Assembly (NCBI GenBank): GCA_963813715.1
Contig: CAWFAK010000009.1
Span: 192,001 to 256,000, forward strand
Direction: 5' to 3'
Source of the DNA: an uncultured Planctomycetaceae bacterium
GTDB lineage: Bacteria > Planctomycetota > Planctomycetia > Planctomycetales > Planctomycetaceae
Length of the DNA: 64,000 bases
Shown here piece after piece: positions 17,704 through 42,403 of the stretch (its first letter is position 1; every line of letters begins with the position of its first letter). The notes beneath the pieces are model-generated. The model had not been told where the DNA came from. It ran no database searches and worked only from the letters and a program-made list of their open reading frames with translations. Both the position numbers and the translations under genes were made by a program.

Positions 17704-19086
17704 GTGATTCCTTCCGAGCGAAAGCCCCGCCTCATCCTGCGGCTCGCCCGCCGCTTGTTGGCCGGGCTGTTGCTCGGGTTGACCTGCGCGAGCGTGCTGC
17801 CGGCCGCCGAATTCCGCGCGGCTTCGGCCAAGGCCGACATCACTCCACAGGAGAGCTTCGACCTCTGGGGCTACGCCGACCGCAGCGGGCCCTCTAGTGG
17901 GACGCACGATCCGCTCTTTGGCAAGGTGCTGCTGCTCGATGACGGCACGCATCGCCTCGCCCTGGTCACGCTCGATTTGGGCCGCACGTTCGGCGTCGAG
18001 TCGATGGACGTCGTGCGGCGGCGCGTGCGTGGCTCGGCCGGCGTCGAGCAGGTCTTCTTCTTCGCGTCGCATACGCATTCCGGCCCGTTCATCAACGATA
18101 CGTACCCGCCGGGCAAGCGGCCTGCCTGGGAAGAACGGGCCCTTGATCGGATTGCCGCCGCGATCGAGCAGGCGGCAGCTCGCCTGCAACCGGCGGTTCT
18201 GGGCGTCGGGGAAGGGGACGTGCTGATCGGCCACAATCGGCGTTTCGTTCGCCCCGACGGCACGGTGAAGATGCTCTGGCGCAACGCGACCAAAGCGCCC
18301 ACGCACCCGGTCGATTCCCGCGTCGGCATCCTCCGCGTCGACGGGCGCGATGGCCGCACGCTGGCCGTGCTCGTCAACTATGCGTGTCACCCAGTCGTTT
18401 TCGGCCCCGATAATCTCAAGTACTCCGCCGATTATCCGAGTGCGATGGCCGGCGTGGTCGAGCCCGCGTTCGGCGCGGGGACTGTGTGCCTCTTCCTGCA
18501 AGGGGCTGCCGGCGACATCAATCCCTACTTCGACAAAACGCCCCTGGCTGAGGATGCCGAGAAACTGATGCAGGAGACGGGGCGCGAGCTGGGCCGCGAA
18601 GCACTCCGCGTCGCCCGATCGATCGTTCCGAAGCCGCCCGACAAGCCCGAGCTGCAGTTCGCCCTCGACATGCGACACTTCCGACACCGCTACGAACCCC
18701 AGGCTCTGCTCGCCCAACTCAAAGGACAGGTGAAGCCCGAAGTGATCGAGCGCTACCGCGGCTACCTGACGGCGCCGCTCGACTGCCCGGTGACCACTTT
18801 GCTCATCAACCGGCAGATCGCACTCGTCGGAATGCCCGGCGAGCCGTTTGTCGAATTCGGTCTCGCGTTTCGCGACCGCTCTCCGGCCGCCTTCTCGTTC
18901 TTCGCCGGGTATGCAAACGGCTACCACGGCTACTTCCCTACGATCCGCGCGGCCGTCGAAGGCGGCTACGGAGCCGAAGGCCTCGTTTCCCGCGCCGAAG
19001 TCGGAGCCGGCGAAACCATGCTCGACACGGCTCTGATCCGCGTCCACACCATGCTCGGCCAACTCAAGCCGCTGCCCCAACGTTAA
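17704..19086 (+). CDS. Neutral/alkaline ceramidase-like hydrolase
   Basis: ADITP, THDPLF, ASHTHSGP, NYACHP, FLQGAAGDINP, PGEPF, GYANGY.GYFP. Confidence 0.8.
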   Translation: MIPSERKPRLILRLARRLLAGLLLGLTCASVLPAAEFRAASAKADITPQESFDLWGYADRSGPSSGTHDPLFGKVLLLDDGTHRLALVTLDLGRTFGVESMDVVRRRVRGSAGVEQVFFFASHTHSGPFINDTYPPGKRPAWEERALDRIAAAIEQAAARLQPAVLGVGEGDVLIGHNRRFVRPDGTVKMLWRNATKAPTHPVDSRVGILRVDGRDGRTLAVLVNYACHPVVFGPDNLKYSADYPSAMAGVVEPAFGAGTVCLFLQGAAGDINPYFDKTPLAEDAEKLMQETGRELGREALRVARSIVPKPPDKPELQFALDMRHFRHRYEPQALLAQLKGQVKPEVIERYRGYLTAPLDCPVTTLLINRQIALVGMPGEPFVEFGLAFRDRSPAAFSFFAGYANGYHGYFPTIRAAVEGGYGAEGLVSRAEVGAGETMLDTALIRVHTMLGQLKPLPQR

Positions 19087-19872
19087 TCACTGCCACAGTC
19101 ATTCCAAGTGGACACGGACCGCGTGAACGCGATCCCGTCCCAATTCAATCCCGTCCCAGTCCCGATCCCGTCGCGTTTAGTGTCCCGATCGACTTGTCGG
19201 GTGCAATTCAGTCCTGTCCCGCGATCTCCTCCGATGGCCTGCTGACGCGGCGGGGCGGGAGGCCAAATTCGCCGGGATTTTCTCGGTGAAACAACGTGTC
19301 CCGTCCCGCGGTGGCCAAGCGGTGGGAGGTGGGTCAACTACTTTGGTGGGTCAACTCGCTAGTGAAACAAAGTGTCCCGACCCACCGACCCACCGGCCAA
19401 TCTCTTTCCACCTGGCGTCCCGATCCCGTCCTCGACAGCCATGGGGGGCAAGGGCCATTTTCTCCGTGCTTTTCTCGATGAAACATCGAGTCCCGTCCCG
19501 GTCCCGTCCCAGTCTTTCCCCTCGTCCGACGGCTGACGGGTGGGACAGGGGGCGGGGTGAGGGACAAATCGCCCCGGGATTTTCTCGGTGGAATAACGTG
19601 TCCCGTCCCGTCACGCGTCCCGCGTGGTCAACTATCTCTGTGGTCAACTATCTGGTGAAAGTAGGTGACCACACCACACCCTCTCGGGATGACATTCCGT
19701 TAACCACACTTCGGCCCGACAGCACTCGTCTCCGCGTACTCCGAGGCCCGCGCATCGCGGCTGTCGTCGCTCAAGCAGCGCGCACACCAAGACGTTCGCG
19801 CCCAGAACCGCTCTCTCCATTCAGCCACAAAACGGAGATTCATCCAAGATCAGTTTCTCAGGAATTCTGGAT
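19087..19872. repeat. GTCCC-rich non-coding element, copy A
   Basis: Repeated TTTTCTCGRTGRAAYAWCGWGTCCCGTCCC units (~19278, 19470, 19580), related unit at ~19360, four GGTCAACT, terminal CCAAGATCAGTTTCT at 19844. Confidence 0.75.
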
Positions 19873-19877
19873 GGCGA

Positions 19878-19955
19878 CCGTCGACGGCGGCTACGGAGCC
19901 CAAGGCCTCGTCTCTCGCGCCGAAGTCGGAGCCGGCGATACCATGCTCGACACGG
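19878..19955 (+). repeat. Direct repeat of the 3' region of the ceramidase-like gene (18953-19030)
   Basis: 73/78 nt identical by manual alignment. Confidence 0.9.
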
Positions 19956-19964
19956 GCCAGCGGA

Positions 19965-21915
19965 TCACTCGGTCAGTTCGAGGAACGGATCGAGGCCCAT
20001 GTGGTTGTGGGCGTCGGAGCGTTGGCGTTCGTGCTTCAAGAGATGCTTCCGCTCTTTGCGGTGCATCTTCTCCAAAAAGCGTTGCGTGCGGCGGAACAGG
20101 CCGAGCCATTGCAGCGAAAGTTGGCCGTCGGCATTCGGGCGGGCCTTGGCACGGAAGCGGGCCACCTTGTCCGGCTTGAGACAGCGGAGCAGCTCGTCCT
20201 CGAGCGACAAGAAGAATTGAAATGAGCCGGGATCGCCTTGCCGGGCGCGCGGCCGACCAACTGACGGTCGATGCGGGCCGAGCTGTGCATCTCGGTGGCG
20301 ATGACGTGCAGGCCGCCCGCCGCGCGGACCTTTTCGTCGAGCTGGATGTCGGTCCCGCGGCCGGCCATGTTGGTGGCGATGGTCACCGCCTGCGATTGTC
20401 CGGCCCGGGTCACAATCTCCGCTTCTTGCTCGTGGAAATGCGCGTTGAGGACCTGGTGCGCGATGCCACATTCCTTCAGCGCGCGGCTCAAGGCCTCGGA
20501 CGCATCGACCGACGGCGTGCCGACGAGCACCGAGCGCCCGGCGGCGTGCATCTTCGCCACCTCTTGCACAACGGCCTGCCGCTTAGCCGCCAGCGTGGTG
20601 AAAATCCGCGGCGGTGCGCCGGTGCGGATGCAGGGGCGGTTGGTCGGAATCGGTGAAACACTGATCGCGTAGGTGTTCGCTAGCTCGCGGCGAGCCTGGA
20701 CGGCCGTGCCCGTCATGCCGCAAACGTGCTCGTACTGGCGAAAATAGGTCTGCACGGTGACCCGCGCGGCCTGTCCCGTGGCGGCGGTAATCGGCACCAG
20801 CTCCTTCGCTTCGACCGCCTGGTGCAGGCCGTCCTGCCACTTGCGGCCGTCCATCTGGCGGCCCGTCGACTCGTCCACGATGACGACCTTTTCCTCGACG
20901 ACGACGTAATCGCGATCCCGCTGAAAACCGTATCGCGACGAGAGCGCTTGTTCGACGTGCTTGTACATCCGCTCGGCGTCGACGCAATCCAACAGCGATG
21001 GCTTGGCCATCAACAGCACTTTGCGGCAGCCACGATCGGTCAGGTAGGCCATCCGGCGATCGGGTTCGAAGACGAACTCGACGTCGCGCTCCAACCGTAG
21101 CGACGCCCGCTGGCTCCAGCGCAGCAGATTGACGGTGGCTGCCGTGTTCGGCTGCGTGAGACCGATGATCAACGGCGTCCGCGCCTCGTCGATCAGAATA
21201 CTGTCGGCCTCGTCGATCAGGGCGAAGTGGTGGCTACGCTGCACCGGCGCTCGTTGGCGCCGCGCGCGGAGCCCGTGAACGACGGGCCGTTGCGGCGGCG
21301 ATATCCGCTCGTCGCGTCGGCGCCGATCCGCAGCCGATCTCGGAGGAAGTCGAAGCCGATCTCCTTGGCCGTTCCGTAGGTGATGTCCTTCGCGTAGGCG
21401 TCGCGGCGCTCCTCAGTTTGCATCGGCGTCTCGATGCAGCCGACGGAGAGGCCCAGCCGCTCGTAGATCGGCCCCATTGTTTCCGCGTCGCGATGGGCCA
21501 GGTAATCGTTGACCGTGACGATGTGGCAGCCGCGGCCGGTGAGTCCGCGGAGAAACGCGGGCAAGGTGGCCGTAAGGGTCTTGCCCTCGCCCGTCTGCAT
21601 CTCGGCGACGTGCCCCTCGAAGAGGGCGATGCCTCCCTGAATCTGCACGAGGAAGTGTTGGAAGCCCAGCTCGCGACGGGACGCTTCGCGGACGAGAGCA
21701 AACGCTTCGACCAACAGGCTGCTCAGGCGCGGCTGCGTCTTGGCTTGCCAGCGCAGTTCGCGACCGCGGCGGAGCAGTTCGGCATCGCTCTCGTCGCGGA
21801 GTTGTTCCGATCGTTTGATGACGACCTGAGCCTGCGCACGCCAGCGCGAGAGCCGCGCGGCATCGAGCCGGCCGCCCCGCTTCACCATGTGCCAAACGTG
21901 GTCGCGTGTAAACAC
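19965..21915 (-). CDS. Short SecA paralogue (frameshifts ~21245 and ~20245)
   Basis: [82 protein letters not shown]. Confidence 0.9.
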
Positions 21916-22012
21916 GTCTCAATTCTTGCACGCCGGCACCGGAAGTCCAATCTCCGAGCGGCGTCCAGTTCGTGGCCGTTTGACAACATTCAGGACATGT
22001 CTTTTCCGGCCT

Positions 22013-23560
22013 TCAGGACACCCGGATGACCACCAACGACCGGTCGTCATGCCCCGACGTGCCGTCCAGGTGGGCCTCGACCTCCGACCAGATCGCATCC
22101 AGAACGGTCTGGGCGGGCTGTCCGTGCTGGGCCAGCAGAACCTCGACGATTCCGTCGCTGCGGAACATTTTCCGCTTGCCGTTCATCGCTTCGCTGACAC
22201 CGTCGGTAAAGGCGATCAAGGTGTCGCCCGGACTGATCGCCAACTGCGACGAGCCGTAGGTCGTGTCGGTAACCACCCCCAGCAACATGCCGTGTGACTC
22301 GAGCTGCACCGGGCCGCCCAAGCGCATCAGCACGGGCGAGGGATGCCCCGCGTTCGAATAGGTGAAAAGCATCTGCCTTGCGTCGATCACACCGTAGAGC
22401 AGGCTCATAAACTGGTGCGGCGGCGTGATCGCATGCAGCGCATGATTGATCCGCACGAGCACTTCGTCGGGCGAGAGGGGCGAGCGCAGGTCGAGGGCCA
22501 GCGCATGGACGGCGCCGCGGACCGCCGACATCACGATCGACGCCGAGATGCCGTGCCCCGACGCGTCGCCGATCGCAAGCGCCGTTCGCCCTTCGGCCAG
22601 CGGAATCAACTCGCACAAGTCGCCGCCGATCTCGAAGTGACTGGTCGAGCGGATGGCCGCTTCGATGCCCGCGCTCGGGGGCAGGGGAGTATCCACGAGC
22701 GACGATTGCGCTTGCGAGGCCAGTTGCAAGTCCCGCTGGAGGCGGTGCTGGGTCGCACTTTCGCGCAACAGCACCACGCGCTCCAACAGAGTCGCCACCT
22801 GCACGGCGATCGATTCCAGCACGTGCATTTCACGGTCGGAAGGCTCGCGGCGGCGGCGATCGTAGACCCACAGCGTGCCGATCGGCCCGGTATCGGAGCC
22901 GACCGATAGGCAAACGGCGGTCGACGTTCCCGGCGGCAGCCATGCCGCCGACTCTTGGATCGTGTCGCCGCCCAAAACCGTCCGGCCGCGGGACAGGGCC
23001 TGCAAGTCAGGAGGATTCTCACTCAGGCTGCGGACCGCCGGCGGACTAAGCGGCGCGTCGCGATGGGCCTGTGCGCGCAGTTTGAGCCGCTCGGTCGAGG
23101 GCTCCAACAGGAAGAACGCGCACGAGCGAAACGGAGTGAGCTGCGTCGCGCCTTCGAGCAATTTCTGCAGCGCGTCGACCAGGTTCCGCTCGGTGGGAAC
23201 CGAGCGGCCGATGTCAACGAGCGTCACCACTTCATCAGTTCGCGATTCGGCGACCCGTGCGGCCGTGACCGAGCGACTGATGAGCTGGGCGAACGTGTCC
23301 GCCAGGTCACCCACCGAATTAAAGGAGCGGTCCTTGGAAGCGTCGTCCGGAAGCACGAGCTGCAGGAAACCGATTCGCTCGTGCCCGTCACTGACTTCGG
23401 AGAACCAGCAGGTGGACGGATCGCTCCGCAGGCGGGCTTCAACTTCCTCGCCGCGGCCGCCGGGCACCGGGACGAACTGCAGCTCCCAACCAATGGCGTC
23501 GGAGAATTGCCGGCACGTATCGCGAATCCAAGTTTGCGAGCCGGCAACCGAAATCGTCAT
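22013..23560 (-). CDS. GAF + SpoIIE/PP2C (RsbU-like) phosphatase
   Basis: IGGDL, IGDASGHG, YSNAGHP, FTDGVSEA, DDRSL; GAF-like middle region. Confidence 0.88.
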   Translation of the reverse strand: MTISVAGSQTWIRDTCRQFSDAIGWELQFVPVPGGRGEEVEARLRSDPSTCWFSEVSDGHERIGFLQLVLPDDASKDRSFNSVGDLADTFAQLISRSVTAARVAESRTDEVVTLVDIGRSVPTERNLVDALQKLLEGATQLTPFRSCAFFLLEPSTERLKLRAQAHRDAPLSPPAVRSLSENPPDLQALSRGRTVLGGDTIQESAAWLPPGTSTAVCLSVGSDTGPIGTLWVYDRRRREPSDREMHVLESIAVQVATLLERVVLLRESATQHRLQRDLQLASQAQSSLVDTPLPPSAGIEAAIRSTSHFEIGGDLCELIPLAEGRTALAIGDASGHGISASIVMSAVRGAVHALALDLRSPLSPDEVLVRINHALHAITPPHQFMSLLYGVIDARQMLFTYSNAGHPSPVLMRLGGPVQLESHGMLLGVVTDTTYGSSQLAISPGDTLIAFTDGVSEAMNGKRKMFRSDGIVEVLLAQHGQPAQTVLDAIWSEVEAHLDGTSGHDDRSLVVIRVS

Positions 23561-23821
23561 GGGCTTCCATCCGGGCGAGCCGTCGATACGGGCATCCCAC
23601 GCGCGCAATGCACCGGTATCAACATCGACCGGCCGGGGGATTCCACTGAGGGCGGGATCCGAAGAAGCACAACGTATCGGTTATGCGGGCTGGGGGAGAA
23701 TGCGCGGCGCGGCACCCTCGGCGTGCTAGGCTCCGACGAGTCCGTCGCACGTTGATCGGCAAGGCGAAAAGACACCCCTTGCTTCGTGCGTGGCTCTTTA
23801 AGGGCGAGCATCGCTCTTCAA

Positions 23822-25022
23822 TTAGCGGCGCGCCAGGCGGTGCTTCGAGCGGCACCCAGGCACCGTTCTTCGCGCTCGAAGCGACGCACTGCTGGATGAA
23901 GTACATCCCCTCGACGCCGTCGTAGACGTTGGGGTAGACGGTGTCCCGCGACTCGAATTTCTCGCCCGTCGCCCGCTTGATGATCGAATCGAACGCCGCC
24001 CGGTAGACGTTCGCAAACGCTTCGAAAAACGCCTCGGGATGTCCCGACGGCAAGCGGCAGGCCGCTTGGCCGGCTTCATTCATATAAGGGGCGTTGGGAT
24101 TCCGCGTGTAGATCGCGTGCGGCTCGCCGTTGCGGCGGACCATCATCTGGTTGGGCTCCTCCTGCCGCCACGAGATCGAGCCCTTCGTCCCGTCGACGTC
24201 GATGAACAGGTCGTTCTCGCGACCGTGCGAAATCTGGCTCGCGGTCACCGTGCCGATCGCCCCGTTCTCGAAGCGAATCACGGCGTGGCCGTAGTCGTCG
24301 AGCTGACGTCCGGGCTCGAAAATCTTGAGCGACGCCGAAACCTCCTGCGGAATGAGCCCCGTCATGTAGCGGGCCAGGTTGAAAGCGTGGGTGCCGATGT
24401 CGCCGAACGAACCGGCGGCCCCCGACTTCATTGGGTCGGTCCGCCACGAGGCTTGCTTCTGCCCGGACGATTCGAGCCGCGCCCGCAGCCAACCCTGCAA
24501 GTAGTTGGAGCGGATGGCCTGAATTTCGCCCAGGTCGCCGGACAAAATCATTTGCCGCGCCTGCCGCACCAGGGGGTAGCCGGTGTAGTTATGGGTGACG
24601 GCAAAGACGACCCCGGACTTCTCCACGATGCTCGCCAGCTCCTCGGCCTCGTACAGATTGAATGTCAGCGGCTTGTCGCACAGGACATTGAAGCCGGCCT
24701 CGACGGCGGCCTTGGCGATGGGGAAGTGGGTGTGGTTAGGGGTGGCGATGCTAACGAAATCGATCCGCCGATCGGCCGGTAGGGCCCGCTCCTTGTCGAT
24801 CAGTTCCTCGACGCTGCTGTAAGCACGGTCGGCGGCAATGTCGTAGGCCGGGGCCGAGTCCTTAGCCTTCTGGGGATCCGACGATAAAGCACCCGCCACC
24901 AGGGCTGCCCGGTTGTCCAGGACGGCGGCCGTCGCGTGGACGCGGCCGATAAACGCCCCCTGTCCGCCGCCGATCAAGCCCATCCGCAACTTGCGTTTTA
25001 GTGACCCGTTGGTCGTCTCCAT
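23822..25022 (-). CDS. Gfo/Idh/MocA-family oxidoreductase
   Basis: MGLIGGGQGAFIGRVH, ATPNHTH, CDKP, GDIGTHA; true C-terminus probably ..KHRLARR* after a frameshift near 23845. Confidence 0.9.
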
Positions 25023-25073
25023 GGCAGACTCCTGGTGTGAGATTGTTGATGCTCAGCGTACGGGGCACAGGCC

Positions 25074-25101
25074 TTGCAGGGAAGCGAAGGCTCCCTATAA
25101 T
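25074..25101 (+). promoter_or_regulatory. Sigma-70-type promoter upstream of tRNA-Gly
   Basis: TTGCAG-N16-TATAAT. Confidence 0.55.
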
Positions 25102-25186
25102 CTCATGCGGTCTGCAATCAGACGGCGTCCGTTTTCCCCTATAGGGTAAGGCGGATTGATGAATTGAGGCCGGCTCGATTGCCGCC

Positions 25187-25258
25187 GCGGGTGTAGCTCA
25201 GTGGTAGAGCACCACGTTGCCAACGTGGACGTCGAGGGTTCGAACCCCTTCACCCGCT
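25187..25258 (+). tRNA. tRNA-Gly(GCC), CCA not encoded
   Basis: GCGGGTG/CACCCGC acceptor stem, anticodon arm CCACG-TTGCCAA-CGTGG, GGTTCGAAC T-loop. Confidence 0.96.
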
Positions 25259-25469
25259 TTTTTTCGTTTTTAGTGTTCTCCGAGTCGGCGCTTGGAGAAC
25301 AGGGCGAAGGCGACGCCCCATAGGACGAGACACGCTCGGGGAAGGGGGACACACCCGCGCTGCGGGTTTGACCCGTTCTGCCCCGAAGGTCACCTCATGT
25401 GCCGGCGCTTTCCGTGTTGCGGCGCATATCACCGACACGCTGATCAACTGGATTTGAGTAGGACCGAGA

Positions 25470-27017: not shown

Positions 27018-27192
27018 CGGATCGCTACTGCCGGCCGGCGGGCACGGACGTCCGATCCGTTCTTTCGCACTCTGAAAGCGCCCTGCTGAACTCGCCCAGA
27101 CGAGCAGCGGGTCGCAGCTCGCGGGTTCCTTTTTGTCTGTCGGATTACGTGTCGGCGCACACCCGGCGTGCAGAGTGAAGCGGAACGAGGAT

Positions 27193-27234: not shown

Positions 27235-27323
27235 AGAAGAATTCGCGAATTGCCTGAATTACCACAACCCAACGCAATCCTGTGTCTGAACTGATTTGCC
27301 TAACCTCTTGTGTCTAATCTGTC

Positions 27324-29675: not shown

Positions 29676-29686
29676 CGACTCTTACT

Positions 29687-29725
29687 CCCTCTTCCATTCC
29701 GATGGGAGAGGGCCGGGGTGAGGGC
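29687..29725 (+). repeat. Palindromic repeat, left of DUF559 gene
   Basis: CCCTCTTCC-ATTCCGAT-GGGAGAGGG hairpin plus CCGGGGTGAGGGC tail. Confidence 0.85.
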
Positions 29726-29745
29726 TGCCTTTCCCGCGTCCGCAT

Positions 29746-30099
29746 TTACTCCGCGATCCCGCACGCTTGCAGCACGGCTCGCAGCACCGCGTCGAGATCA
29801 TTGAGCACGTCGTCGTTATCAACTCGCAGCACCCGATACCCGGCCGTCTCGAGCTGCGACTGGCGCTGCCGGTCGTAGTCCGCGCGTCCGACGTGGCTGT
29901 TTCCATCGAGCTCGATGACCAGCCCATGTTCCGGGCAAACGAAGACGACCACGTAATTGCCGATTGGATATTGCCGCCGCACTTTCAGCTTTACGAGCCG
30001 GCGAGAGCGGAGCGCCGACCACAGCCGGCGCTCCGGTCCGGTTAGCTCGCGCCGCAGGCGACGGCAGTTCTCGGTTTGCTAACGATGCTGGTAAGGCAT
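29746..30099 (-). pseudogene. DUF559 (Vsr-like) endonuclease pseudogene
   Basis: RRLRRELTGPERRLWSALR..RRQYPIGNYVVVF..LVIELDGNSH..GYRVLRV; in-frame TAG at codon 7; usual YIVDF Asp replaced by Val. Confidence 0.82.
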
Positions 30100-30108
30100 G
30101 GCAGAAGA

Positions 30109-30146
30109 GCCCTCACCCTGCCCTCTCCCATCGGAATGGGAGAGGG
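30109..30146 (-). repeat. Palindromic repeat, right of DUF559 gene (inverted relative to 29687)
   Basis: Reverse complement CCCTCTCCCATTCCGATGGGAGAGGGCAGGGTGAGGGC. Confidence 0.85.
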
Positions 30147-30175
30147 TTTGCAAAGGGCCGCACCGGGAAGCGCGC

Positions 30176-32804: not shown

Positions 32805-32807
32805 GGC

Positions 32808-32823: not shown

Positions 32824-32907
32824 AATGCGTTGGTGTGTTGCTGTTAATTTGGGCGAGCCCAGAGATTACCGCCGCCTTTGAGCATTACTCACGCGGTGCC
32901 CTTTACC

Positions 32908-32923
32908 AATTTCACGTGGAATC
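32908..32923. promoter_or_regulatory. parS-like site
   Basis: aaTTTCACGTGGAAtc core match. Confidence 0.5.
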
Positions 32924-33056
32924 CCGCATTATTAGTAAAGCCCCCATTTTCCGCAGGGGGAATAACAGACGCTCGCCTGAATCGGACCTTGAAGCCAGAC
33001 CGATCGATTCCATGCGGTTGGCGATTCCAGGGATGCGAATCACGAGGTGCGCGGTC

Positions 33057-34057
33057 ATGGATGAACAGGCACGTGGGGCGGTGGACGGCACGTTAAATTT
33101 CGAGGCGCAGGGGCCGAGCTCGGTCCGGCGGCGATTGGGTCGCGGGCTGAGCGCGCTCTTGGGCTCGAACGGGAACGAAGGCGGGCTGACTGTTCCCGCC
33201 GGCTCGGCTCCCACCGAATCGCGGGCCGCAGTTGCCGATTCCAGCCACGTGCACGTCGAACTGATCGAGCGGAATCCCTTCCAGCCCCGCAAAGACTTCG
33301 AGAGCGAGGCGCTCGACGAACTGGTCGAGAGCGTCCGCCAGCACGGCGTGCTCCAGCCGTTGCTCGTGCGGCCCTGCGGCGGACAGTACCAACTGATCGC
33401 CGGCGAGCGCCGCCTGATGGCCGCGAAGAAAGCCGGCCTCGAGACCGTCCCTTGCCGCGTGCTGGAACTTGAAGACCAGGCGATGTGCGAGGCGGCCCTC
33501 GAAGAGAACCTCAAGCGCCGGGACCTCAACGTCCTGGAAAAAGCGCAAGCCTTCAAAGAGTACATGCACCGCTTCTCGGCCAGCGTCGACGACGTGGCCA
33601 AACACCTCAGCATGAGCCGCTCGTCGGTCTGCAATTTTCTGCGGCTCTTGGAACTGACCGACTTCGTCAAGGATGCCCTGTTGGCCGAGCGGGTGAGCTT
33701 TGGCCACGCGCGGGCCATCCTCTCGCTGAATCACGACGACCAGATCGCGCTGTGCGGCCGGATCGAGAGCGAATCGCTCTCGGTCCGCGAAACCGAGGCA
33801 GCCGTGCGGGAGATCCTCAAGAACCAGCAAGAGCCGCAGGCTGAGACGATCCTGTTCACCGGCGCGGGCGCCCGCCGAAACCGGCACCGAGCACCGCGAG
33901 CGCCCACGTCCGCTCCCTGGAAGAGACCCTCGGCCAGCTCTTCGCGGTCGCGGTCCAAATCAAGGTGAGCGGCAAGGACAAGGGCAAGATTGTGATTCCG
34001 TTCGCCAACAACGACGAGTTCGAACGGATCCTGCGGCACCTCCGTCGCGCGGCTTGA
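33057..34057 (+). CDS. parB: ParB/Spo0J chromosome partition protein (frameshift ~33870)
   Basis: RRRLGRGLSALL, NPFQPRKDF, GVLQPLLVR, IAGERR, ENLKRRDLN, HTH, GHARAIL. Confidence 0.93.
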
Positions 34058-34730
34058 CGTCAGCCGGCTCGCATCGCCGGATCTCGATGCGAGTCGTCCG
34101 GTCCCGAGTCGTCCGGGCCCCCGGGTCCCGTTCCGCTGAGAAGTGTCCGGACCGGATATTTGCCGGCCTGCGCTCGGCAAAGCAACGTGTCCCGACCCCA
34201 ACAGACGTCCCGTCTCTGCGGTTCTTGTCCGTAGACCTCGGGGCCGTCGCCCCATTCCAATCCCGTCCCGACCCTGGCTGGACGGTCCGAGTCCGGTCCC
34301 GAATGCCGCCCCCCTTTCAATCGAAAGTGTCCGGACCGGACTTTTGTCCGACGTAAGTCGCTGCCGGGTAAAGACTACGGCCGGACTCATTTTGGCGGAC
34401 CGGGGAGTCTGGGATCGGGACCGGACCGACTCCGAGTCCGACCGCTCCGGCAGCCGTCTCCCATCAAGACCTTGGATTGGGGACCCCTGGACTCATCTGG
34501 CGGTCCCGTCCCGTCCCAATGTGCCGGTCCGGAATGCGATCGAGAACTCTCCCCCGGTTCACACCGGGGCTCGGGCAAGTTTGTGTCCCGTCCCGCGGTT
34601 CCGGTCCCGAAGTCCGGTCTCATAGAAAGTGTCCGGACCGGACCTCGCGACACGAGCGCGGAGCCAGGGCGAAAGGGGCTTTTCTTTCCATCGTGCCACA
34701 CTCCGCCGATTCGCCCAAGATCAGTTTTCT
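34058..34730. repeat. GTCCC/GTCCGGAC-rich non-coding element, copy B
   Basis: Exact 16-mer AAGTGTCCGGACCGGA at 34141, 34325 and 34627; CAACGTGTCCCGACCC unit shared with copy A; CCAAGATCAGTTT at 34715. Confidence 0.75.
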
Positions 34731-34748
34731 ACGCCCGACTCCGGTTTT

Positions 34749-35850
34749 CTACTGCTGCCTCAATTGTCGCCCTGGTGGCACCGGTTCGGCCTGATCGATC
34801 GCGACATGCGGTTCCGCGGATTCCGGGGAGCGCATTTGCTCGGCGACGAGCCGCGTGTAAGCCGGGTTGCGAAAACGCAACTTGATGACATTCCGAGTTG
34901 TGTCTCCGCGGGCAATCGTCACGGGAGTCGTTGACCGAAAAGCAACGATGGCGGCGACCAGCATCGACGCTCCGAGCGCGACGGCCGTGGCGATCCAGAA
35001 ATCGTCGCCCGCGAAGTTGAGGGGCAGGACGATCGCTGCCGACAGGCAGGTGCAAACCAAGGCGGCCGTCAAGAAGATTCGCCAATAGGCGCGCTGCTGA
35101 ATGCCGGCGCATTCCGCGCAGCGCGGGACGAACATCTGCGCGGCCGGATGAAATGCTCGGTGCTGCGTGCCCTTCGCTCGCCTCGTTTAAACAGACGCAA
35201 CAGACTGGCGGCAGTTGATGGCGTCCCAGTTGGAAATCGCACCATTCGCCGACCGGCGCGACGCCGATACGGCCATTTGACGCGGCTTTGATCTCTCCCG
35301 AAATGGGATCCTGGAGCAGCGCCGGCGGCGTTCCGGGCAGTAATTCTGGAGCATCGGGATAGTTGCGATTGGGATTGATCCGACCCCGCAGCCACATCTG
35401 AATGCCCAGCGTGCCGCCGGACAACAGCACGATTCCGAGCAAAATCAGGGCAACGATCGGCAGCGCGTCCGGGTCACCGAAGGCCAGCAGCGGGACGAGC
35501 GTCAGCGCGAGAAGAATCGCGGTGCCTAAGATGTAGAACGCCACCCTGCCCCACAGCCGGTAGCGGGTCCGGCGATAGCCCTGGACCAGGTCCTCATTGA
35601 TCCACGAGCACTTGGGGCAAGGAACGAGTTCTCTCCCACGATCGAGCGCGCGCTCGAGCTCCTTGGCGGCCCGCTGCTCAGCCAGCCGCGCCGCCCGGGC
35701 CTGCCCGAGACAGTAGGGCGCGACGCCGACTCCCGTGCCGACACGACTCAACTGATAGCAGTAGCCGGTGCCGCACCGGTCGCACTCCACGCGCGCTAAC
35801 CGTTGCCCGGCGGCCGATTGCGTGAAATGTTTGCCAAAATAAAGGAACAT
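34749..35850 (-). CDS. Hypothetical membrane protein with CxxC (Zn-ribbon-like) pairs (frameshift ~35140)
   Basis: CDRC, CPKC, CCVC, CAEC and two TM hairpins. Confidence 0.6.
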
Positions 35851-36089
35851 CGCGAACCACGCTCGGAAAAGGACACGCCTCGCTTCGCACTCTTGAAATG
35901 AGGCGACTCGTTAATGCCGAAGTGCGATTGTACCGCCATTCGGACCGCGTCCTAGAGACGGATTCGCAGCAAATCCTTGCCGTCGTGCTGGCTTGCTGCC
36001 GCCGCGATGGTTGAATGCCGGTGCGCCGGCTATTCTTCTTCCGTTCGACAGTGTTCGGGCACGTTCGCTTGAGACCGGTGCCGCTCCCA

Positions 36090-36689
36090 ATGGGTAAAGG
36101 CCGACTCGAAGCCTTCAGCGACGGCGTGATCGCCATCATCATTACCGTGATGGTGCTGGAGATGAAGGTGCCGCTGCCCCACCAAGGGGCGACACTCGCC
36201 GATCTCAAGCCGGTGGTGCCGTCCTTGTTGAGCTATGCGTTGAGCTTCGTCTTCATCGGCATCTACTGGAACAATCACCATCACCTGTTCCAGGCGACGC
36301 GGCGCGTGACGGGCGGCATTCTCTGGGCCAATTTGCATCTGCTCTTTTGGCTCTCGCTCATTCCCTTCACGACCGCCTGGATGGGCGAGAACACGTTCGC
36401 CCCGACGCCGACCGCGGTGTACGGTGTCGTGCTGCTGCTTGCGGCGCTGGCCTATTACGTGCTGCAGCTCACGATCCTGCGGGCGCCCGGCGGAAACCCG
36501 ATGTTGGAAGAGGCCCTTGGCGGCGATTGGAAAGGCAAAATCTCACCGGTCCTCTATGTGCTGGCAATTGCGGCGTGCTTGATCAGCCAGTGGCTCGCCT
36601 GCGCGTTTTACGTGCTGGTCGCCCTGATCTGGCTCATTCCCGATCGGCGGATCGAACGGATGTTTGCCAATCGCGAGTCCGACGACTGA
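36090..36689 (+). CDS. TMEM175 (DUF1211) family K+ channel
   Basis: RLEAFSDGVIAIIITVMVLE, YWNNHHHLF, LSLIPFTT. Confidence 0.92.
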   Translation: MGKGRLEAFSDGVIAIIITVMVLEMKVPLPHQGATLADLKPVVPSLLSYALSFVFIGIYWNNHHHLFQATRRVTGGILWANLHLLFWLSLIPFTTAWMGENTFAPTPTAVYGVVLLLAALAYYVLQLTILRAPGGNPMLEEALGGDWKGKISPVLYVLAIAACLISQWLACAFYVLVALIWLIPDRRIERMFANRESDD

Positions 36690-36721
36690 CCGGCGAGAGC
36701 CGCGGCGGTATAACGAATCGT

Positions 36722-37631
36722 ATGCCTACTCCGCACTGGCACGGCGTGTTTCCCGCGGTCACGACGCAGTTTCGCGAGGATCAATCGCTCGACCTCGACG
36801 CCACCGCGCGGCATTGGGAGGTAATGATCGCGAGCGGCATCCAGGGCCTGATCGTCGCCGGGTCGCTCGGTGAGAACCAAACGCTCGAGCCCGCCGAAAA
36901 GCGGGCCCTCGTCGCCGAGGCGGTGAAGTGTGCGGCCGGCCGTATCCCCGTGCTCAGCGGCGTGGCCGAGATGAGCACGGCGGCCGCCTGCAAGTACGTC
37001 CGCGATTGCGAACGCCTGGGGGCCAGCGGATTCATGGTGATGCCCGCGATGGTCTACAAGGCCGACGCCCGCGAAGCCGCGCATCACTTTCGCCAGGTGG
37101 CCGCCGCCACGAGCCTGCCCTGGATGCTCTACAACAATCCGGTTGGCTATCCGGTCGACATCACGCCGGCGCAGTTCGTCGAGCTGGCCGACATCCCGAC
37201 TCTGGTGGCGATCAAGGAAAGCTCGGCCAACACGCGGCGGATCACCGAGCTGCGAATCGCTGTCGGCGACCGCTACGCCCTCTTCGTGGGGGTCGACGAC
37301 CTGATCCTGGAGTCGGCGGTGCTGGAAATCGACGGCTGGGTGGCCGGCTCGGGCATTGCCGTTCCTCGCGAGAACCAGCACTTTTGGGAGCTGACGCGGC
37401 GCGGCCGCTGGGACGAGGCGCGGGCCCTGCTATCGCTGGTTTTACCCGCTGCTCAAGCTGGACACGCAGATCAAGTTCGTGCAGCTGATCAAGCTCGCGG
37501 TGCAAGAGGCGGGCCTCGGCCGCGAGTGGGTCCGCAGTCCGCGCTTACCGCTGGCCGGCGCCGAGCGGGAGCAAGCTCTTGCCGTCATCCTCGACGCCTT
37601 GGACAATCGGCCGCGGCTTTCCGCGCTTTGA
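36722..37631 (+). CDS. DHDPS/NAL-family enzyme, probably pyrroline-4-hydroxy-2-carboxylate deaminase (frameshift ~37430)
   Basis: GVFPAVTTQF, GSLGE, LYNNP, AIKESS, GVDDL; operon context. Confidence 0.85.
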
Positions 37632-37645
37632 ATCGGAGTGACGGC

Positions 37646-38592
37646 GTGAGCCTGCAGCGCATCCAAGTGATCGATTCCCACACCGGCGGCGAGCCGACGC
37701 GCGTGATCGTCGCGGGCGGGCCCGACCTGGGGGGTGGCTCGCTGGCCGAGCAGCGCGAGCGTTTTCGATCGCAACACGACCGCTTCCGCCGGGCTGTGAT
37801 CTGCGAACCGCGCGGGTCCGACGTCATTGTCGGCGCCCTGCTCTGCCCGCCCAGCGATCGCCAGTGCGCGACCGGAGTGATCTTCTTCGAGAGCGTCGGC
37901 TATCTGGGGATGTGCGGGCACGGGACGATCGGCGTAGCGGTCACGCTCGGCCATCTGGGGCGGATCAAGGCGGGCCGCTCGTGCTTCGAGACGCCGGTCG
38001 GCCGCATCTCGATCGAGTACGACGGGGCGAACACGGTCGCCCTCGAAAATGTTCCGAGCTATCGCCTCGCCAAGGACGTGACCGTCGAGGTGCCGGGCCT
38101 CGGCAAGGTGACCGGCGACGTCGCCTGGGGCGGCAACTGGTTCTTTCTCGTCCGCGATCCGATCGAGCCGCTCGAATTGAGCCGAGTCGATCGGCTCCTC
38201 GACATCACGCGGCGAATTCGGGCGGCGTTGCGACGACAACGGCATCACGGGCGCCGACGGGGCGGAGATCGATCACGTGGAATTGTTTGGTCCTCCCGCC
38301 GACCCGCGCAATCAGAGCCGCAATTTCATGCTCTGTCCGGGCGGAGCCTACGATCGTTCACCGTGCGGCACGGGAACGAGCGCCAAGCTCGCCTGCCTGG
38401 CGGCCGACGGACGGCTCGCGCCCGGCGAACCGTGGCGGCAAGAAAGCATTTTGGGGAGCGTCTTCACCGGCCTCGTACCGGATCGACGGCGGGCGGACGA
38501 TCCCCAAAATCTCCGGCCAGGCCTTCGTCACGGCCGAGACGACCTTGCTGCTCGACGAGTCCGATCCGTTCGCCTGGGGCTGCCCCGCGTGA
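37646..38592 (+). CDS. Proline racemase family, probably 4-hydroxyproline 2-epimerase (two frameshifts)
   Basis: [11 protein letters not shown]; catalytic MCGH and DRSPCGTG. Confidence 0.9.
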
Positions 38593-39872
38593 CCGCGACC
38601 CCATTCCCCCCGGCCGGTGCGGGTTCCGATCGCGTGGTCGTGGTCGGCGGAGGCGTGATCGGGGCGGCCTGCGCGTACTTTCTGCGGCAGGCCGGGCGAC
38701 GCGTGACGATCGTCGACGCCGGCGCGTTCGGCCGCGGCTGCTCGCACGGCAACTGCGGCTACATCTCACCGAGCCACGTGTTGCCGCTGGCTGGGCCGGG
38801 CGCGCTGCAGCTCGGCGCTCAAAACGCTGTTTCAGAAGAATTCGCCCCTCAAGGTGCGCTGGCGGCTCGATCCGGCGCTCTGGAGCTGGTTCTGGAAGTT
38901 CGCCCGTCGCTGCAACGAGCGCGACTGCGCTGGCCGCCGGGCACGCGATCCAGAATCTTCTCGGCTCGTCCCGCGCGCTGTACGACGAACTCGTTTGCTC
39001 GACGCTCAGCGACGTCGAGTGGGAGCCCTCGGGCGTGCTCTTCGTCTTCCGCACTCCCGCCGCGATGGACCACTACGCCCACACCGACGCGCTCCTGCGA
39101 AACGAGTACGGCCTGGACGCGACGCGCTTCGACGGAAATTCGCTCTTGGAGTTCGAGCCGTCGCTCAAGCCGGGCAGCGCCGGGGCCTGGTTCTATCCGT
39201 CGGACGGTTTGCTGCGCCCCGACAAGCTGATGGCCGCCTGGAGGCGCGTGCTCGAACAGTCGGGCGTCGAAATCCGCGAACACTGCGCGCTCCGCGATTT
39301 GGCCGTCGACGGCCGCGTCGTCGGCGGAGTCATCACCGACGCGGGCAAGATCGAGGCCGACCAGACGCTGATTGCGACGGGAGCGTGGACGCCCCAGTTG
39401 AGCCGGATGTTGCGCTGCCCCGTTCCGATTCAGCCGGGTAAGGGCTATTCGATCACGATGCCCCGCCCTGCACTCTGCCCGCGGCGGCCGATGATCTTCG
39501 AGGAGCATCGCGTCGCCATCTCGCCCATGCAGAGCGGTTATCGCATCGGCTCGACGATGGAATTTGCCGGCTATGATTCGCGACTGAATCCCGATCGCTT
39601 GATGCTCTTGCGCGAAAGTGCAGCCCTATACTTGAAAGAGCCGCTCGCGGAGTCCGACGCTCGAGGAATGGTGGGGCTGGCGGCCGATGACGCCCGACGG
39701 CCTCCCTTTCATCGGGCGGCTGCCCGCGTTCGACAACGTCTTCCTGGCGGCCGGGCATTGTATGCTGGGCGTTTCGATGGCGCCGGCCACCGGCAAACTC
39801 GTCGCGGAACTGATGACCGGCCAACCACCGCACATCGACCCGACACCCTACGCCGTCACGCGTAGTATTTGA
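38589..39872 (+). CDS. FAD-dependent D-amino acid (D-hydroxyproline) dehydrogenase (frameshifts)
   Basis: [47 protein letters not shown]. Confidence 0.88.
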
Positions 39873-39894
39873 TAGGTTCTCCTCGTCTCTGTCT

Positions 39895-40145
39895 CCCTCT
39901 CCCATTCCGATGGGAGAGGGCCGGGGTGAGGGCAAGTTTTGGCAGTTTCTTTGAGCCCGAGGTGGCCGGCACCAATCGATCGTGGAATGATTTGAAGCGT
40001 CCACCTTTGCCTTGATCTCTGTTGCCTCTGTTACCTCCTGTTCAAGATCCTCTTCTTTGTGCCTTCGTGCCTTCGTGGTGAAACGAGCTTTTCCGATTCC
40101 CATTCGAGAACCGGCGGGCTGATCCGCCGCGGCGGACCGCTCGCC
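39895..40145. repeat. Mosaic of several short repeat families
   Basis: Solo DUF559-type palindrome (39895-39933); CTCTGTTGC/CTCTGTTAC/CTCCTGTTC (40017-40043); CTTTGTGC/CTTCGTGC/CTTCGTGG (40055-40082); CCGGCGGGCTGA..CCGCTCGCC (40111-40145). Confidence 0.75.
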
Positions 40146-40195
40146 TCAGGCCCATTAGTCAGCAAGTCGACGAAACCCAGACGAAGGAGCGCTTC

Positions 40196-41287
40196 ATGGA
40201 CAGGTCGTTAAGCGAGCATGCCTTTCTGCCCGATGCCGACCCGTTAACTGCCTTTCCGCCCGATAGCCCGATGGCCGTGCTGGACGAGATCGGCCGCGAT
40301 CTGCCGAGCCTGCTGCGGGACTCCGGCTTTCGCTCGCGGGCCCGGCGTCTCGAAATTCCCGCCTGGAAGGAGCCTGCCGATCCCGCTGCCGTCCTGCCCC
40401 AGCTGCGGCTGCGCTACGTGCGGCTGGGCTTCCTCGCATCGGCTTACATCAACCAAGTCGGCGAACCGCTGGCCGGCGTGCTGCCGCGGAACCTGGCCGT
40501 GCCGCTTGCGGACGCGTGCCGGCGGCTGTCGCGGCCGCCGATCCTGAGCTACGACGGCTATGCCCTTTACAACTGGAAGCGGTTCGATCCCGCGCGGCCG
40601 ATCGCGCTGGGGAACATTGACACGATCCAGAATTTCGTTCACCTCTACGACGAGCACTGGTTCATCCTGGTGCACGTCGAGATCGAGCAGATCGCGGCTC
40701 ACATGATGGCGGGCGTGGACCTGGCGACCCGGGGCATCGCCGCCGGCGATCGGGGACTCGTCAATCGCGGGCTGCAGAAGGTCGGCGAAAGTGTCAGCCG
40801 GCAGATCGCCGTCCTCCGCCGCATCCCCGAGCACATGGACCCGGCCCTGTATTACAAGACGTTTCGGCCGTACATTCGCTTCTTCGAGCACGTCGTCTTC
40901 GAGGGGGTCGACTCCACGCCGATGAATTTCCGCGGCGAAACCGGCGCCCAGAGCAGCATCATGCCGACGCTCGTCGCGCTGATGAAGATTCCGCACCGGC
41001 CGTCACTGCTCACCAATCACCTGGACGACATGCAGAATTTCATGCCGCGCGAGCACCGGCAACTGATCGCCGACGTGCAAGCCCTGGGCGACCCACGGCC
41101 GCTCGCCGACAAGGAACCCTACAATGAAGTGCTCGAAGCGATGGCCACTTTTCGCGAAGTCCACTACGGCTGGGCCGACGAGTACATCAACAAGCGAGTC
41201 AGCGACCCCCGCGGCACCGGCGGCACTCCCTATATGCAGTGGCTGGGCCAACTGATCGCCGAAACGCGGGCCCACAAAATTCCGTGA
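40196..41287 (+). CDS. Indoleamine 2,3-dioxygenase-like heme protein
   Basis: PILSY..YALYNW, EHWFILVH, RGETGAQSS, FREVH, RGTGGTPY. Confidence 0.85.
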   Translation: MDRSLSEHAFLPDADPLTAFPPDSPMAVLDEIGRDLPSLLRDSGFRSRARRLEIPAWKEPADPAAVLPQLRLRYVRLGFLASAYINQVGEPLAGVLPRNLAVPLADACRRLSRPPILSYDGYALYNWKRFDPARPIALGNIDTIQNFVHLYDEHWFILVHVEIEQIAAHMMAGVDLATRGIAAGDRGLVNRGLQKVGESVSRQIAVLRRIPEHMDPALYYKTFRPYIRFFEHVVFEGVDSTPMNFRGETGAQSSIMPTLVALMKIPHRPSLLTNHLDDMQNFMPREHRQLIADVQALGDPRPLADKEPYNEVLEAMATFREVHYGWADEYINKRVSDPRGTGGTPYMQWLGQLIAETRAHKIP

Positions 41288-41418
41288 GGATGGTCGAGGT
41301 GTGGGGATGGTTCGTGTCCCGTCCCGTGTCCCGTCCCAACTGTTCCCCCCTCGCCCGTCGCGCTCCTTCAGCCACGAAACCGCGATTCGTCCAAGATCAG
41401 TTTCTTGGACTCCGGGAT
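41288..41418. repeat. GTCCC-rich non-coding element, short copy C
   Basis: CGTGTCCCGTCC twice in tandem, then a block matching 19815-19872 that includes the palindrome GTCCAAGA-TCAGTT-TCTTGGAC. Confidence 0.75.
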
Positions 41419-41473
41419 TGACGAACGTTCACCGCGGTCGCAAGCTCTGAGCTTGGCACCGAGGGAAATCAAC

Positions 41474-42034
41474 ATGAACAATCTCGACCACATGTTAGAA
41501 CGCAACAAAGACTTTGCTGCTCAACAGTCTGCCGCGGGCACACTGATGCCTTCGCTTCCGCGGGCGCTGCCGAATGTAAAAGCAGTCATCATCGGTTGCG
41601 CTGATATGCGCGTGGATCCGGCAGATATACTCGGAATTAAACCGGGTGAGGCCGTCATCATGCGCAACATCGGCGGTCGAATCACCCCTGGGCTGTTGGA
41701 GCAACTGGGGCTGCTCGGACGAATCGGCGAGGTTGCCGCGGAGATTCCAGGGGGTGGTGGAGAGTTTCATATCATCGTGCTGCATCACACCGATTGCGGC
41801 ATCACTCGTCTTGCGGGCGACCCCGCCATGCTGGCGCACTATTTTCAAGTCGAGGAAGGCGACCTCAAAGCAAAAGCGGTCACCGATCCCCGCGCCGCGG
41901 TTGCCGTCGACGTTGCTTTGCTCCGGGCGATTCCCGCATTGCCGGGCGCGTGGTTAGTCTCCGGCCTCGTCTATGACGTAGCGAACGGACTTGTTGAGAT
42001 CGTAGTACCGCCGGCGCCGATTCGTACTGCGTAA
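41474..42034 (+). CDS. Beta-class carbonic anhydrase
   Basis: CADMR (CxDxR), RNIGGR, HHTDCG zinc ligands, GLVYDV. Confidence 0.88.
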   Translation: MNNLDHMLERNKDFAAQQSAAGTLMPSLPRALPNVKAVIIGCADMRVDPADILGIKPGEAVIMRNIGGRITPGLLEQLGLLGRIGEVAAEIPGGGGEFHIIVLHHTDCGITRLAGDPAMLAHYFQVEEGDLKAKAVTDPRAAVAVDVALLRAIPALPGAWLVSGLVYDVANGLVEIVVPPAPIRTA

Positions 42035-42349
42035 AATGATCCGGCGTAAAATGATCCGGCCCGACACCCGCCTCTGGCGTTGCGACCTAACCTGGGGTTG
42101 CTCCCTCGGTTGGATGTGCCGGCCCCCGGTGTTGCGCATCGATCCGCCGATGCGTGGCGAAGTGCTGCTCTCGATCAGGCCGTACCTCTACGGCGACGAC
42201 GCGACTGCCGTAGTTGCCCGCGACGAGCCTGTGTGCCGCTCGTGGCTGGACAAAGCTGGGCTGAGCGACCCCCCGCGTTTTTCTGGTGTGACCCCCGGTC
42301 CAGGGCGAAGGGATCGCACCGGCCAGGGTCGCGGGGCTGCACACGCGAC

Positions 42350-42403
42350 ATGCGGTGGCTTAGCCAACTGATCGCTGAGACACGGGCTCACACGATCTCG
42401 TGA
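42350..42403 (+). repeat. Diverged direct repeat of the IDO gene 3' end (41234-41287)
   Basis: 43/54 nt identical; MQWLGQLIAETRAHKIP* vs MRWLSQLIAETRAHTIS*. Confidence 0.85.

Follow-up and report, generated by a model that had tools for sequence, protein, structure and literature searches.

A polar, mosaic non-coding repeat family in the genome of an uncultured soil planctomycete, with gene-tail duplicates at two of its copies

The BOX elements of Streptococcus pneumoniae are built from boxA, a variable number of boxB modules and boxC. Repetitive extragenic palindromic sequences (REPs) are reported in Planctomycetes (PMC3733652, PMC2817692, PMC3333891). Two further systems concern the 3' ends of genes. 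Rhs and type VI secretion system (T6SS) loci carry orphaned 3' ends left by incoming homologous DNA (PMC5361080), and the element e14 lies in icd/icdC of E. coli K-12 so that the gene uses the tail of the element while a diverged C-terminal pseudogene fragment stands at its far end (PMC13626634). This analysis is concerned with three non-coding tracts, A, B and C, in a window of 64,000 nucleotides (positions 192001-256000 of contig C9) from G000, a 7.49-Mb metagenome-assembled genome (MAG) of 63% GC from a genus of uncultured soil planctomycetes. Positions without a contig name are those of the window. We hold it to be on balance probable that the tracts are a lineage-specific, non-coding and polar mosaic repeat of the REP/BIME/BOX kind (BIME, bacterial interspersed mosaic element) which marks hot spots for accessory DNA, and that tracts A and C stand at scars of C-terminal displacement.

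Eleven other genomes of the genus were compared. That of the sister species, G002, is 93-97% identical to G000 and syntenic with it over 28 kb. Whole-genome script scans cover G000. The three tracts share an end block, GCCAC-N8-GATTCRYCCAAGATCAGTTT, which occurs three times in the window, always on the + strand (19824-19856, 34695-34727 and 41371-41403), where shuffled sequences are expected to give none. The initial annotation had described this block with a spacer of nine nucleotides; the conserved block is real and the spacer is eight. Against an expectation of 0.2, the window contains 10 matches of the unit pattern GTGTCCSGWCC. Every one of them is on the + strand and inside one of the three tracts. 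The three same-strand, non-coding tracts with a shared end block stand as they had been described. Each also begins directly behind the stop codon of a + strand gene, as had been claimed: tract A (19087..19873) after the TAA of a ceramidase-like gene at 19084-19086, tract B (34058..34745) after the TGA of parB at 34055-34057, and tract C (41289..41426) after the TGA of an IDO-family gene at 41285-41287.

The family extends well beyond the window. The block core CCAAGATCAGTTT, with one mismatch at most, is found 71 times in the genome, and 65 of these copies carry the upstream signature; the reversed pattern, used as a control, has no match in the genome. A profile of the block, R1, was built from 58 copies and has at least 54 matches. 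The conserved part is approximately 100 nt long and runs from GCGCGCAC..CGCTCGCGC through CTCTCCATTCAGCCA(C/T)AAAA, a variable stretch of 10 nt and CCAAGATCAGTTTT to about 15-25 nt more. In alignments, two boxes within it, CTCCATTCAGCCA(C/T)AAAA and CCAAGATCAGTTTT, are invariant and lie 13-14 nt apart, although conservation of the boxes between orthologues is biased upward because the G002 copies were picked by the block pattern. The two-box layout suggests a putative protein-binding site, and in that case the 27 invariant bases would be a handle to find the protein.

The units upstream of the block give the family its polarity. With the pattern GTGTCC[CG]G[ACT]CC there are 331 units genome-wide, and 137 of them stand upstream of a same-strand block at a distance of 1.5 kb or less, compared with 2.2 expected. 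At least one unit lies within 1 kb upstream in 44 of 65 blocks and within 1 kb downstream in none of the 65. The motif GTCCCG occurs upstream of blocks at 5.3 per kb on the same strand and 0.75 per kb on the complement (0.43 per kb genome-wide). An array consists of one to about eight same-strand units of 60-200 nt, and the block closes one side. All unit types have GAAA-N(0-3)-GTGTCC(C/G)G(A/T)CC in common, several bear a GC-rich hairpin, and several types recur in differing orders throughout the genome. Unit type 1 has a GC hairpin followed by ATTTTCTCGGTGAAACAAC and GTGTCCCGTCCC; on direct reading the hairpin is CCCTCGCCC...GGGTGAGGG, a GC-rich imperfect palindrome of the REP type. A second type bears GGGTCAAC direct repeats, and the third and fourth types centre on the palindrome GTCCGGAC. 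In one subfamily, units of about 205 nt stand in tandem, in variable number, ahead of the block. Paralogous or subfamily copies are approximately 76-94% alike within the genome. The family carries no gene of its own. Other repeat modules follow some blocks, for example AGCCCCGCCAAGGGGCGACAGAAAATAGCCCAGGGTTTCAACCCTGGGTAAC and TGCCTTGGGTGCCACGGTTGAGCTTGCTCAACCG (G000:C17:158932-159066), and the genome holds several other intergenic repeat families as well.

The comparison with BOX elements holds in that the family is non-coding and intergenic, has on the order of 100 copies, combines variable internal units with a terminal module and has no transposase of its own. However, its sequence is unrelated, it has a single conserved terminal module with no counterpart at the left end, and it has several unit types, tracts of up to 1.5 kb and a range of one planctomycete genus. 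The likeness to REPs and BIMEs lies in GC-rich hairpin units at high copy number, which stand behind genes in intergenic DNA, cluster into mosaics and are targets of IS110-family elements. The differences are that the units of a tract have one orientation and are longer than 20-40 nt, that the end block is not palindromic, and that no REP-associated tyrosine transposase (RAYT) gene is flanked by units. Integron attC sites have the complementary boxes RYYYAAC ... GTTRRRY (R'' and R'). The boxes of the block, CCATTCAGCCACAAAA and CCAAGATCAGTTTT, lack such complementarity, its copies gave no consensus fold, and no tyrosine recombinase lies on the contig. CRISPR arrays do not fit either, since the units of tract A are only 73-91% alike, are spaced 76-192 nt apart, and have 'spacers' that are themselves repeated modules. 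Nor do the features of miniature inverted-repeat transposable elements appear: no inverted repeat spans tract A, no inverted or direct pairs of blocks lie within 5 kb of each other, and a 1.3-kb insertion that carries a tract in G002, described below, shows no clear target duplication.

In Rfam, nothing between 18000 and 43000 reached its gathering score except a tRNA (the best match in a tract scored 25.8 bits against a threshold of 95), and no Pfam family was found within the tracts. A long open reading frame (ORF) across tract A, 19286-20176, also has no Pfam family; the initial annotation had read the tracts as non-coding. The family is undescribed, having no Rfam match and no description in the literature, which was searched non-exhaustively.

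None of the 65 blocks lies within a called gene. As placed by a home-made gene caller, blocks are overrepresented between convergent genes (23 of 63, compared with 16% of all spacers, P 9e-5) and underrepresented between divergent genes (8 of 63, compared with 29% of long spacers, P 0.003). In 37 of 63 cases the gene upstream shares the strand of the tract (P 0.21 against 0.5). Thus a position behind a same-strand stop codon, as seen three times in the window, is no rule of the family. There was no significant replication-strand bias of the blocks, with 14/36 to 22/48 on the G-rich strand; GC skew is uninformative for the replication strand in this genome, where genes are also split 377/742. 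One block lies approximately 280 nt from a contig end.

Six of the 11 other genomes of the genus have the block pattern. It is absent from all 29 genomes compared from other genera, and profile R1 had no match in 60 other genera of the family. A species-wide collection holds exact block matches at 57 loci in 7 MAGs. Four such matches (L118, L161, L162 and L165) are on contigs of 2-8.6 kb in a MAG titled Tepidisphaeraceae. These are probably mis-binned planctomycete DNA, because the flanks of at least one of them, L162, match a locus of G000 and G002. At least 10 of 14 block pairs between G000 and G002 are collinear orthologues, which together with the 76-94% identity of paralogues indicates that most copies are old.

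The clearest insertion is at tract C. The IDO-family gene (40196..41287, + strand; Pfam IDO, E 1.6e-53) is 95% identical to G002 up to 41288. Behind it G000 has a 1116-nt insertion (41289..42404), for which G002 is the empty site, passing from ...CCCGTGAG directly into CAGAC.... Of the empty sites in relatives that had been predicted for such tracts, this is the only one found. The sequence CGTGAG stands in direct orientation at both junctions. From left to right the insertion contains tract C, a minimal copy with two units and a partly decayed end block at 41359-41426 (the R1 match, C9:233359-233426, spans only model positions 53-124); a beta-carbonic anhydrase gene on the + strand (41474..42034; Pfam Pro_CA), the cargo that had been named; a spacer of 300 nt; and a second IDO tail, duplicate C (42335..42404, + strand; BLASTP E 1e-07), which is contiguous with the native downstream flank. 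No recombinase gene lies within the insert. The duplication comprises the last 17 codons of the gene (41237-41287 vs 42353-42403), and weaker similarity reaches out to 42335. Duplicate C is 83% identical to G002 over 87 nt, and the flank from 42499 on is 97.8% identical. The carbonic anhydrase gene has a GC content at third codon positions of 0.62, below the 1st percentile of the genome (0.66). Within the genus it is matched only in the genome G005, at 82%, over the coding sequence only and in block-free surroundings. Searches for the carbonic anhydrase cassette and for the DNA accompanying tract B in 80 metagenome block loci and the whole genome returned only block and unit matches. A stretch of 77 nt just 3' of duplicate C (42422-42498) is present in G000 and absent from G002.

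At tract A the evidence is a recombination patch. The ceramidase-like gene (17704..19086, + strand; Pfam Ceramidase_alk, E 1.5e-10) has an orthologue in each of the 11 other genomes of the genus, and the five of these regions that were examined have one tail copy apiece. Tract A itself is a non-coding unit array (repeat families D1-D11), including three type-1 units of family D1 (19249..19308, 19441-19500 and 19551-19610, + strand) with GC hairpin, T-run, GTGAAACAAC and GTGTCCCGTCCC. Its end block is at 19766..19878 (R1 match C9:211766-211878, E 4e-21). A copy of the gene's tail follows downstream, so that 18949-19030 and 19874-19955 are 93% identical over 82 nt. A diverged tail of the host gene had been claimed downstream of two of the three tracts, and it is present at A and C. 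The claim that mismatches fall mostly at third codon positions is right only in part; it holds for the bases (4 of 6 in A, 7 of 11 in C). By codons, 6 of 10 changes in C are synonymous and 4 non-synonymous; in A only 2 of 6 are synonymous and the other 4 are not.

Alignment of the ceramidase-like region with G002 gave 153 mismatches in 2065 nt. Their density is 8-11 per 100 nt as far as 18939, after which 119 nt have none: the patch 18940..19058 is identical to G002 and begins at the left edge of the duplicated segment. The probability of so long a mismatch-free run at any place in the alignment is ~0.011, and not one of 20000 simulations had it abutting the 3' end. The left, in-gene copy of the duplicated segment (18949..19030) is identical to G002 at 82 of 82 positions. 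The right copy (duplicate A, 19874..19958) matches it at 76 of 82, a divergence equal to that of the gene as a whole, and therefore has the look of the native tail. What looks imported, with displacement of the old tail, is the segment 18940-19873 with a new tail, the tract and the block. This segment of 934 nt, in which there is no recombinase gene, ends about 30 nt after the start of CCAAGATC, exactly at the right edge of the block. Tract A is absent at the orthologous site of G002, which has 2 kb with three ORFs at the locus that are missing from G000. Duplicate A is cut 6 nt from the stop codon of secA, whose 3' part (19965..21244, - strand; Pfam SecA domains) converges on the tract. The cut of the orphan near this stop codon and the missing 2 kb indicate that a deletion came afterwards.

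The assembly of G000 is error-prone, and one could ask whether the duplicates and tracts are artefacts of it. Contigs of 2-4 independent runs reveal single-base indels at 20245, 21250, 33870, 35165, 37430 and other positions, and because of these the genes secA and parB and the one next to block B appear falsely fragmented; for example, the secA frameshifts at 20245 and 21250 are assembly indels in all four runs. Gene calls in this MAG need care because of them. The structures themselves are found independently of this assembly. DNA contigs of two metagenome runs span tract A, its block, duplicate A and secA, a strain-level contig from another collection (L222) holds the same structure at 96.4% identity over 17900-21854, and the family occurs in six other MAGs. 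An assembly artefact is thus very improbable. The metagenome contig joints listed include none that removes tract A, although an absence of joints or of cover proves nothing; the joints 19311>34324 and 19829>34716 were rejected as contigs from other repeat copies.

The course of events that we infer for these loci is one in which the tract travels passively. The repeat arrays would be residents of intergenic DNA, mainly behind the 3' ends of genes, and most copies old. Repeat-rich spacers would act as hot spots where strain-specific DNA gathers and rearrangements break. At A and C, DNA of a relative may have supplied a homologous gene tail followed by the tract, and at C also by the foreign carbonic anhydrase gene; after joining, one tail copy would serve the gene and the other would be left as an orphan. 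The route could be C-terminal displacement, either through a single crossover of the Campbell type or through homology-facilitated illegitimate recombination, which has been proposed for Rhs and T6SS loci. The Rhs/T6SS case is similar in that homology-anchored DNA brings a new 3' end together with new downstream DNA and shifts the old one downstream with no integrase, as is seen at A and C (PMC5361080). It differs in that the genes here are those of ordinary enzymes and not of polymorphic toxins, each site has one orphan, and the imported DNA has a repeat tract. The topology of A and C is also that of e14 in icd/icdC, where an integrase does the work (PMC13626634). That element is 15 kb long with its own site-specific recombination system, whereas the inserts here are 0.9 and 1.1 kb, contain no recombinase and differ in their targets.

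The likeness to e14 leads to the inference of the initial annotation, in which the tracts were integrative elements. Tail, tract and block, with or without cargo, would be a non-autonomous cassette that a recombinase acting in trans inserts at the 3' ends of unrelated protein genes; the block would be the right end or attachment site, the units arm-type binding sites, and a replacement tail would be brought along. Several observations fit this. At C there is a true insertion, with CGTGAG in direct orientation at its two junctions and an empty site in G002. At A the patch starts where the duplication has its left edge, and the insert stops at the edge of the block. In 4 of 14 orthologous pairs homology is sharply lost 14-26 nt after the block core. 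In addition, accessory genes lie to the right of blocks, the two invariant boxes with their fixed spacing are as expected for a protein-binding site, and the anatomy is that given for e14 (PMC13626634).

We nevertheless consider such cassettes unlikely, for several reasons. First, gene-tail duplicates are no trait of the family. A search for flanking direct repeats found them at 2 of 65 genome copies, A and C, and not at the other 63, where old copies may have decayed. Among 80 metagenome block loci, 56 were usable for the same test and one had a tail duplicate; it comes from a strain with 3.6% divergence and is orthologous to A. A further candidate, a repeat of 49 nt, lies at locus L201. The search misses orphan tails more than about 25% diverged, and tails orphaned before the split of G000 and G002 are too diverged for it, so the absence is weak evidence against ancient events. 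The block, to whose copies the initial annotation had tied gene-end duplications, thus occurs genome-wide and mostly without them. Secondly, tract and upstream gene share a strand in no more than 37 of 63 cases, and the junctions of A (GCGRCCGTCGA) and C (CGTGAG) are unrelated, with no common target core on direct reading and crossovers at opposite edges of the tail; the targeting of gene ends that had been proposed is not supported as a trait of the family. Third, no integrase is linked. Of 19 matches to tyrosine or serine recombinases in the genome, none is on the contig of the window, which agrees with the earlier statement that the window has no recombinase, and 2 of the 19 are no more than 5 kb from a block, as many as chance would give (P of at least 2, 0.50); the linkage that was to be tested for is not seen. 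The blocks also do not form pairs within 5 kb. Lastly, most copies are old.

Some candidates for further duplicates or enzymes were rejected. The 86-nt repeat at C14:33175 belongs to a dispersed module found at six or more other places, the repeats at C16:153536 belong to paralogous HAAS-domain genes, and C5:114285, C5:1499849, C7:375010 and the remaining flanking-repeat candidates are short. The DDE transposases beside the blocks at C14:33175 and C5:641066 are plain insertion sequence (IS) insertions 50-100 nt downstream of the block, and were rejected as the family's enzyme since their other copies (about 9 loci) are not beside blocks.

The best reading of the tail duplicates is that they are scars of two separate imports and not the mode of movement of the family. 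Several points weigh against the passive, REP-like repeat with displacement scars that we favour. First, the right edge of the block acts as a defined end, in the import at A and in the 4 of 14 pairs that lose homology just beyond the block, which a passive passenger need not have. Secondly, the homology at A has its left edge no more than about 9 nt from the crossover, and this fits a site-specific event better than a RecA-type exchange. Third, the tails at C differ by 17% and are identical over about 12 nt at the longest, which makes them a poor substrate for homologous recombination. In addition, the units do not alternate in orientation, unlike those of classical BIMEs (10 of 10 on the + strand in the window), and a link to RAYTs was not found: of 8 Y1_Tnp matches, none has units on both sides, and one, at C7:398553, has a one-sided cluster. 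The context statistics depend on the home-made gene caller. Lastly, about 27 bases are invariant in the two boxes across species whose coding DNA is approximately 80% identical, which requires either continuing spread from master copies or a function. In a further form of the cassette idea, the block would be the recognised right end or attachment site of a system that has no integrase linked to it, and a trans-acting enzyme of the genus would move tail, units, block and optional cargo to arbitrary gene 3' ends and displace the old tails; the approximately 65 copies would be mostly old with their orphans decayed, and targets would be guided by homology. This we regard as slightly less likely than the cassettes set out above.

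The invariant boxes could also reflect selection on elements that do not move at all. The block and units would then be cis elements of the host, such as a promoter or regulator site, terminators or insulators, or a long non-coding RNA. The spacer between the boxes, variable in sequence and fixed in length, would suit such a site, and on the - strand the consensus block reads TTGG, 17 nt, TG-n-CTGAAT, which on our reading resembles a -35 and an extended -10 element. Also, 2 of the 3 type-1 units of tract A score as terminator-like hairpins with a T-run on the + strand, the blocks are enriched between convergent genes, and a 375-nt contig from an RNA library covers 19279-19653 with one difference, although it is strandless and may be DNA carry-over. 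However, a sigma-70 scan gave no promoter-like site in tracts A and B on either strand, and neither of the neighbouring genes has a position that would consistently let the block drive it. No consensus RNA structure was found for the block on either strand (alifold, 90 distinct copies), no covariation is visible between the block's spacer and flank, and there is no Rfam family. Box 2 is substituted in 4 of 14 orthologous pairs, and tracts are present or absent at the same gene ends between the sister species. For these reasons we find a set of non-mobile host elements a doubtful explanation.

The repeat-rich spacers do coincide with differences between the two species. The three tracts coincide with 3 of the 5 breaks (non-homologous gaps) in the 28-kb synteny map against G002. 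Where homology is lost beyond blocks, G000 has an islet of HEPN, GmrSD_N, Dcm and Vsr genes, a DDE-type IS or other unique DNA. The islet (L107, G000:C5:516251-520505) consists of 4.2 kb found only in G000, directly to the right of a block, where G002 has about 110 nt. Its genes are HEPN (MAE_28990-like), GmrSD_N/DUF262, a split C-5 cytosine methylase and Vsr, and the split of the methylase gene is probably an assembly indel. In the other direction, G002 has a 1.3-kb insertion with tract, block and about 400 nt more (L058, 665-1968) where G000 has 23 nt (C2:32150-32178). It sits between two copies of another palindrome, CACTGGCGG-N5-CCGCCAGTG, and has no tail copy and no clear target duplication. 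At locus L085 of G002, compared with G000:C17:553379-554522 and C17:536480-534575, the break point of a rearrangement between the species coincides exactly with the left end of a tract, 378 nt upstream of its block.

Mobile DNA also homes to the units. An IS110-family element (DEDD_Tnp_IS110 and Transposase_20; approximately 1.25-1.3 kb) is present in 9 copies of 94-99% identity, at G000:C16:500607-501926 and 8 other loci (L086, L087) and none in the window; it occurs in G002 as well (L057). The element inserts at one fixed position of the type-1 hairpin, with ...CTCACCCCGRCCC on the left in 8 of 9 copies and CTCTCCC on the right in 9 of 9, and thus specifically targets the unit hairpin. On direct reading its ends share no more than AAGATCA with the block. 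Because this element sits in the unit hairpin, the units are recombinase targets. Insertion of the bridge-RNA element IS621 into REPs, as reported, is a close likeness to this fixed hairpin position in 8-9 of 9 copies. The difference is that it explains what lands in the tracts and not how the tracts spread.

These results bear on genomes whose repeats have had little description. The repeat content of uncultured soil planctomycetes, which are known almost only from MAGs, is undescribed, and this family accounts for a good share of their long spacers and contig breaks. Between the sister species it marks the sites of accessory genes, including a defence islet, a carbonic anhydrase and IS elements, and it is a naturally occurring example of a repeat to whose hairpin an IS110-family recombinase homes. 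If A and C are displacement scars, ordinary enzyme genes, and not only toxin loci, can swap their 3' ends together with downstream cargo. The cassettes, if they were true, would be a new way to move genes.

The remaining tract, B, has five units and its end block at 34647-34745 (R1 match C9:226647-226745; + strand). Its host gene is parB (32835..34057, + strand; Pfam ParB_N and HTH_ParB), in which a frameshift is an assembly indel (33870, an additional C in two DNA runs). Homology to G002 stops exactly at the parB stop codon, and 34058-36089, with tract B and the neighbouring gene, is replaced by 1149 unrelated nt in G002. No copy of the parB tail was found downstream of the tract. A parS half-site, GTGAAACA, in units near parB was judged a coincidence on direct reading, as it is without a palindromic partner. 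The gene beside the block (34749..35850), for which the initial annotation had named a Zn-ribbon membrane protein, encodes a Zn-ribbon-like membrane protein by its translation, which shows CxxC pairs and hydrophobic stretches. The gene is on the - strand and converges on the block. It contains the assembly indel at 35165 and has no Pfam family, and a DNA search of the genus (E 1e-30 or better) found it in none of the other 11 genomes.

Two features between the tracts are given for completeness. The tRNA gene at 25187-25258 (Rfam, 71 bits) is without an attached tract or block. A DUF559 gene at 29680-30150 (Pfam E 3e-35; close to its start, the full ORF has an in-frame TAG) stands between two inverted copies of another hairpin, CCCTCTCCC..GGGAGAGGGCCGGGGTGAGGGC. 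At this locus the contigs of all four runs skip 369-374 nt (29732/29733 to 30103/30107), and G002 has 229 nt compared with 519 in G000.

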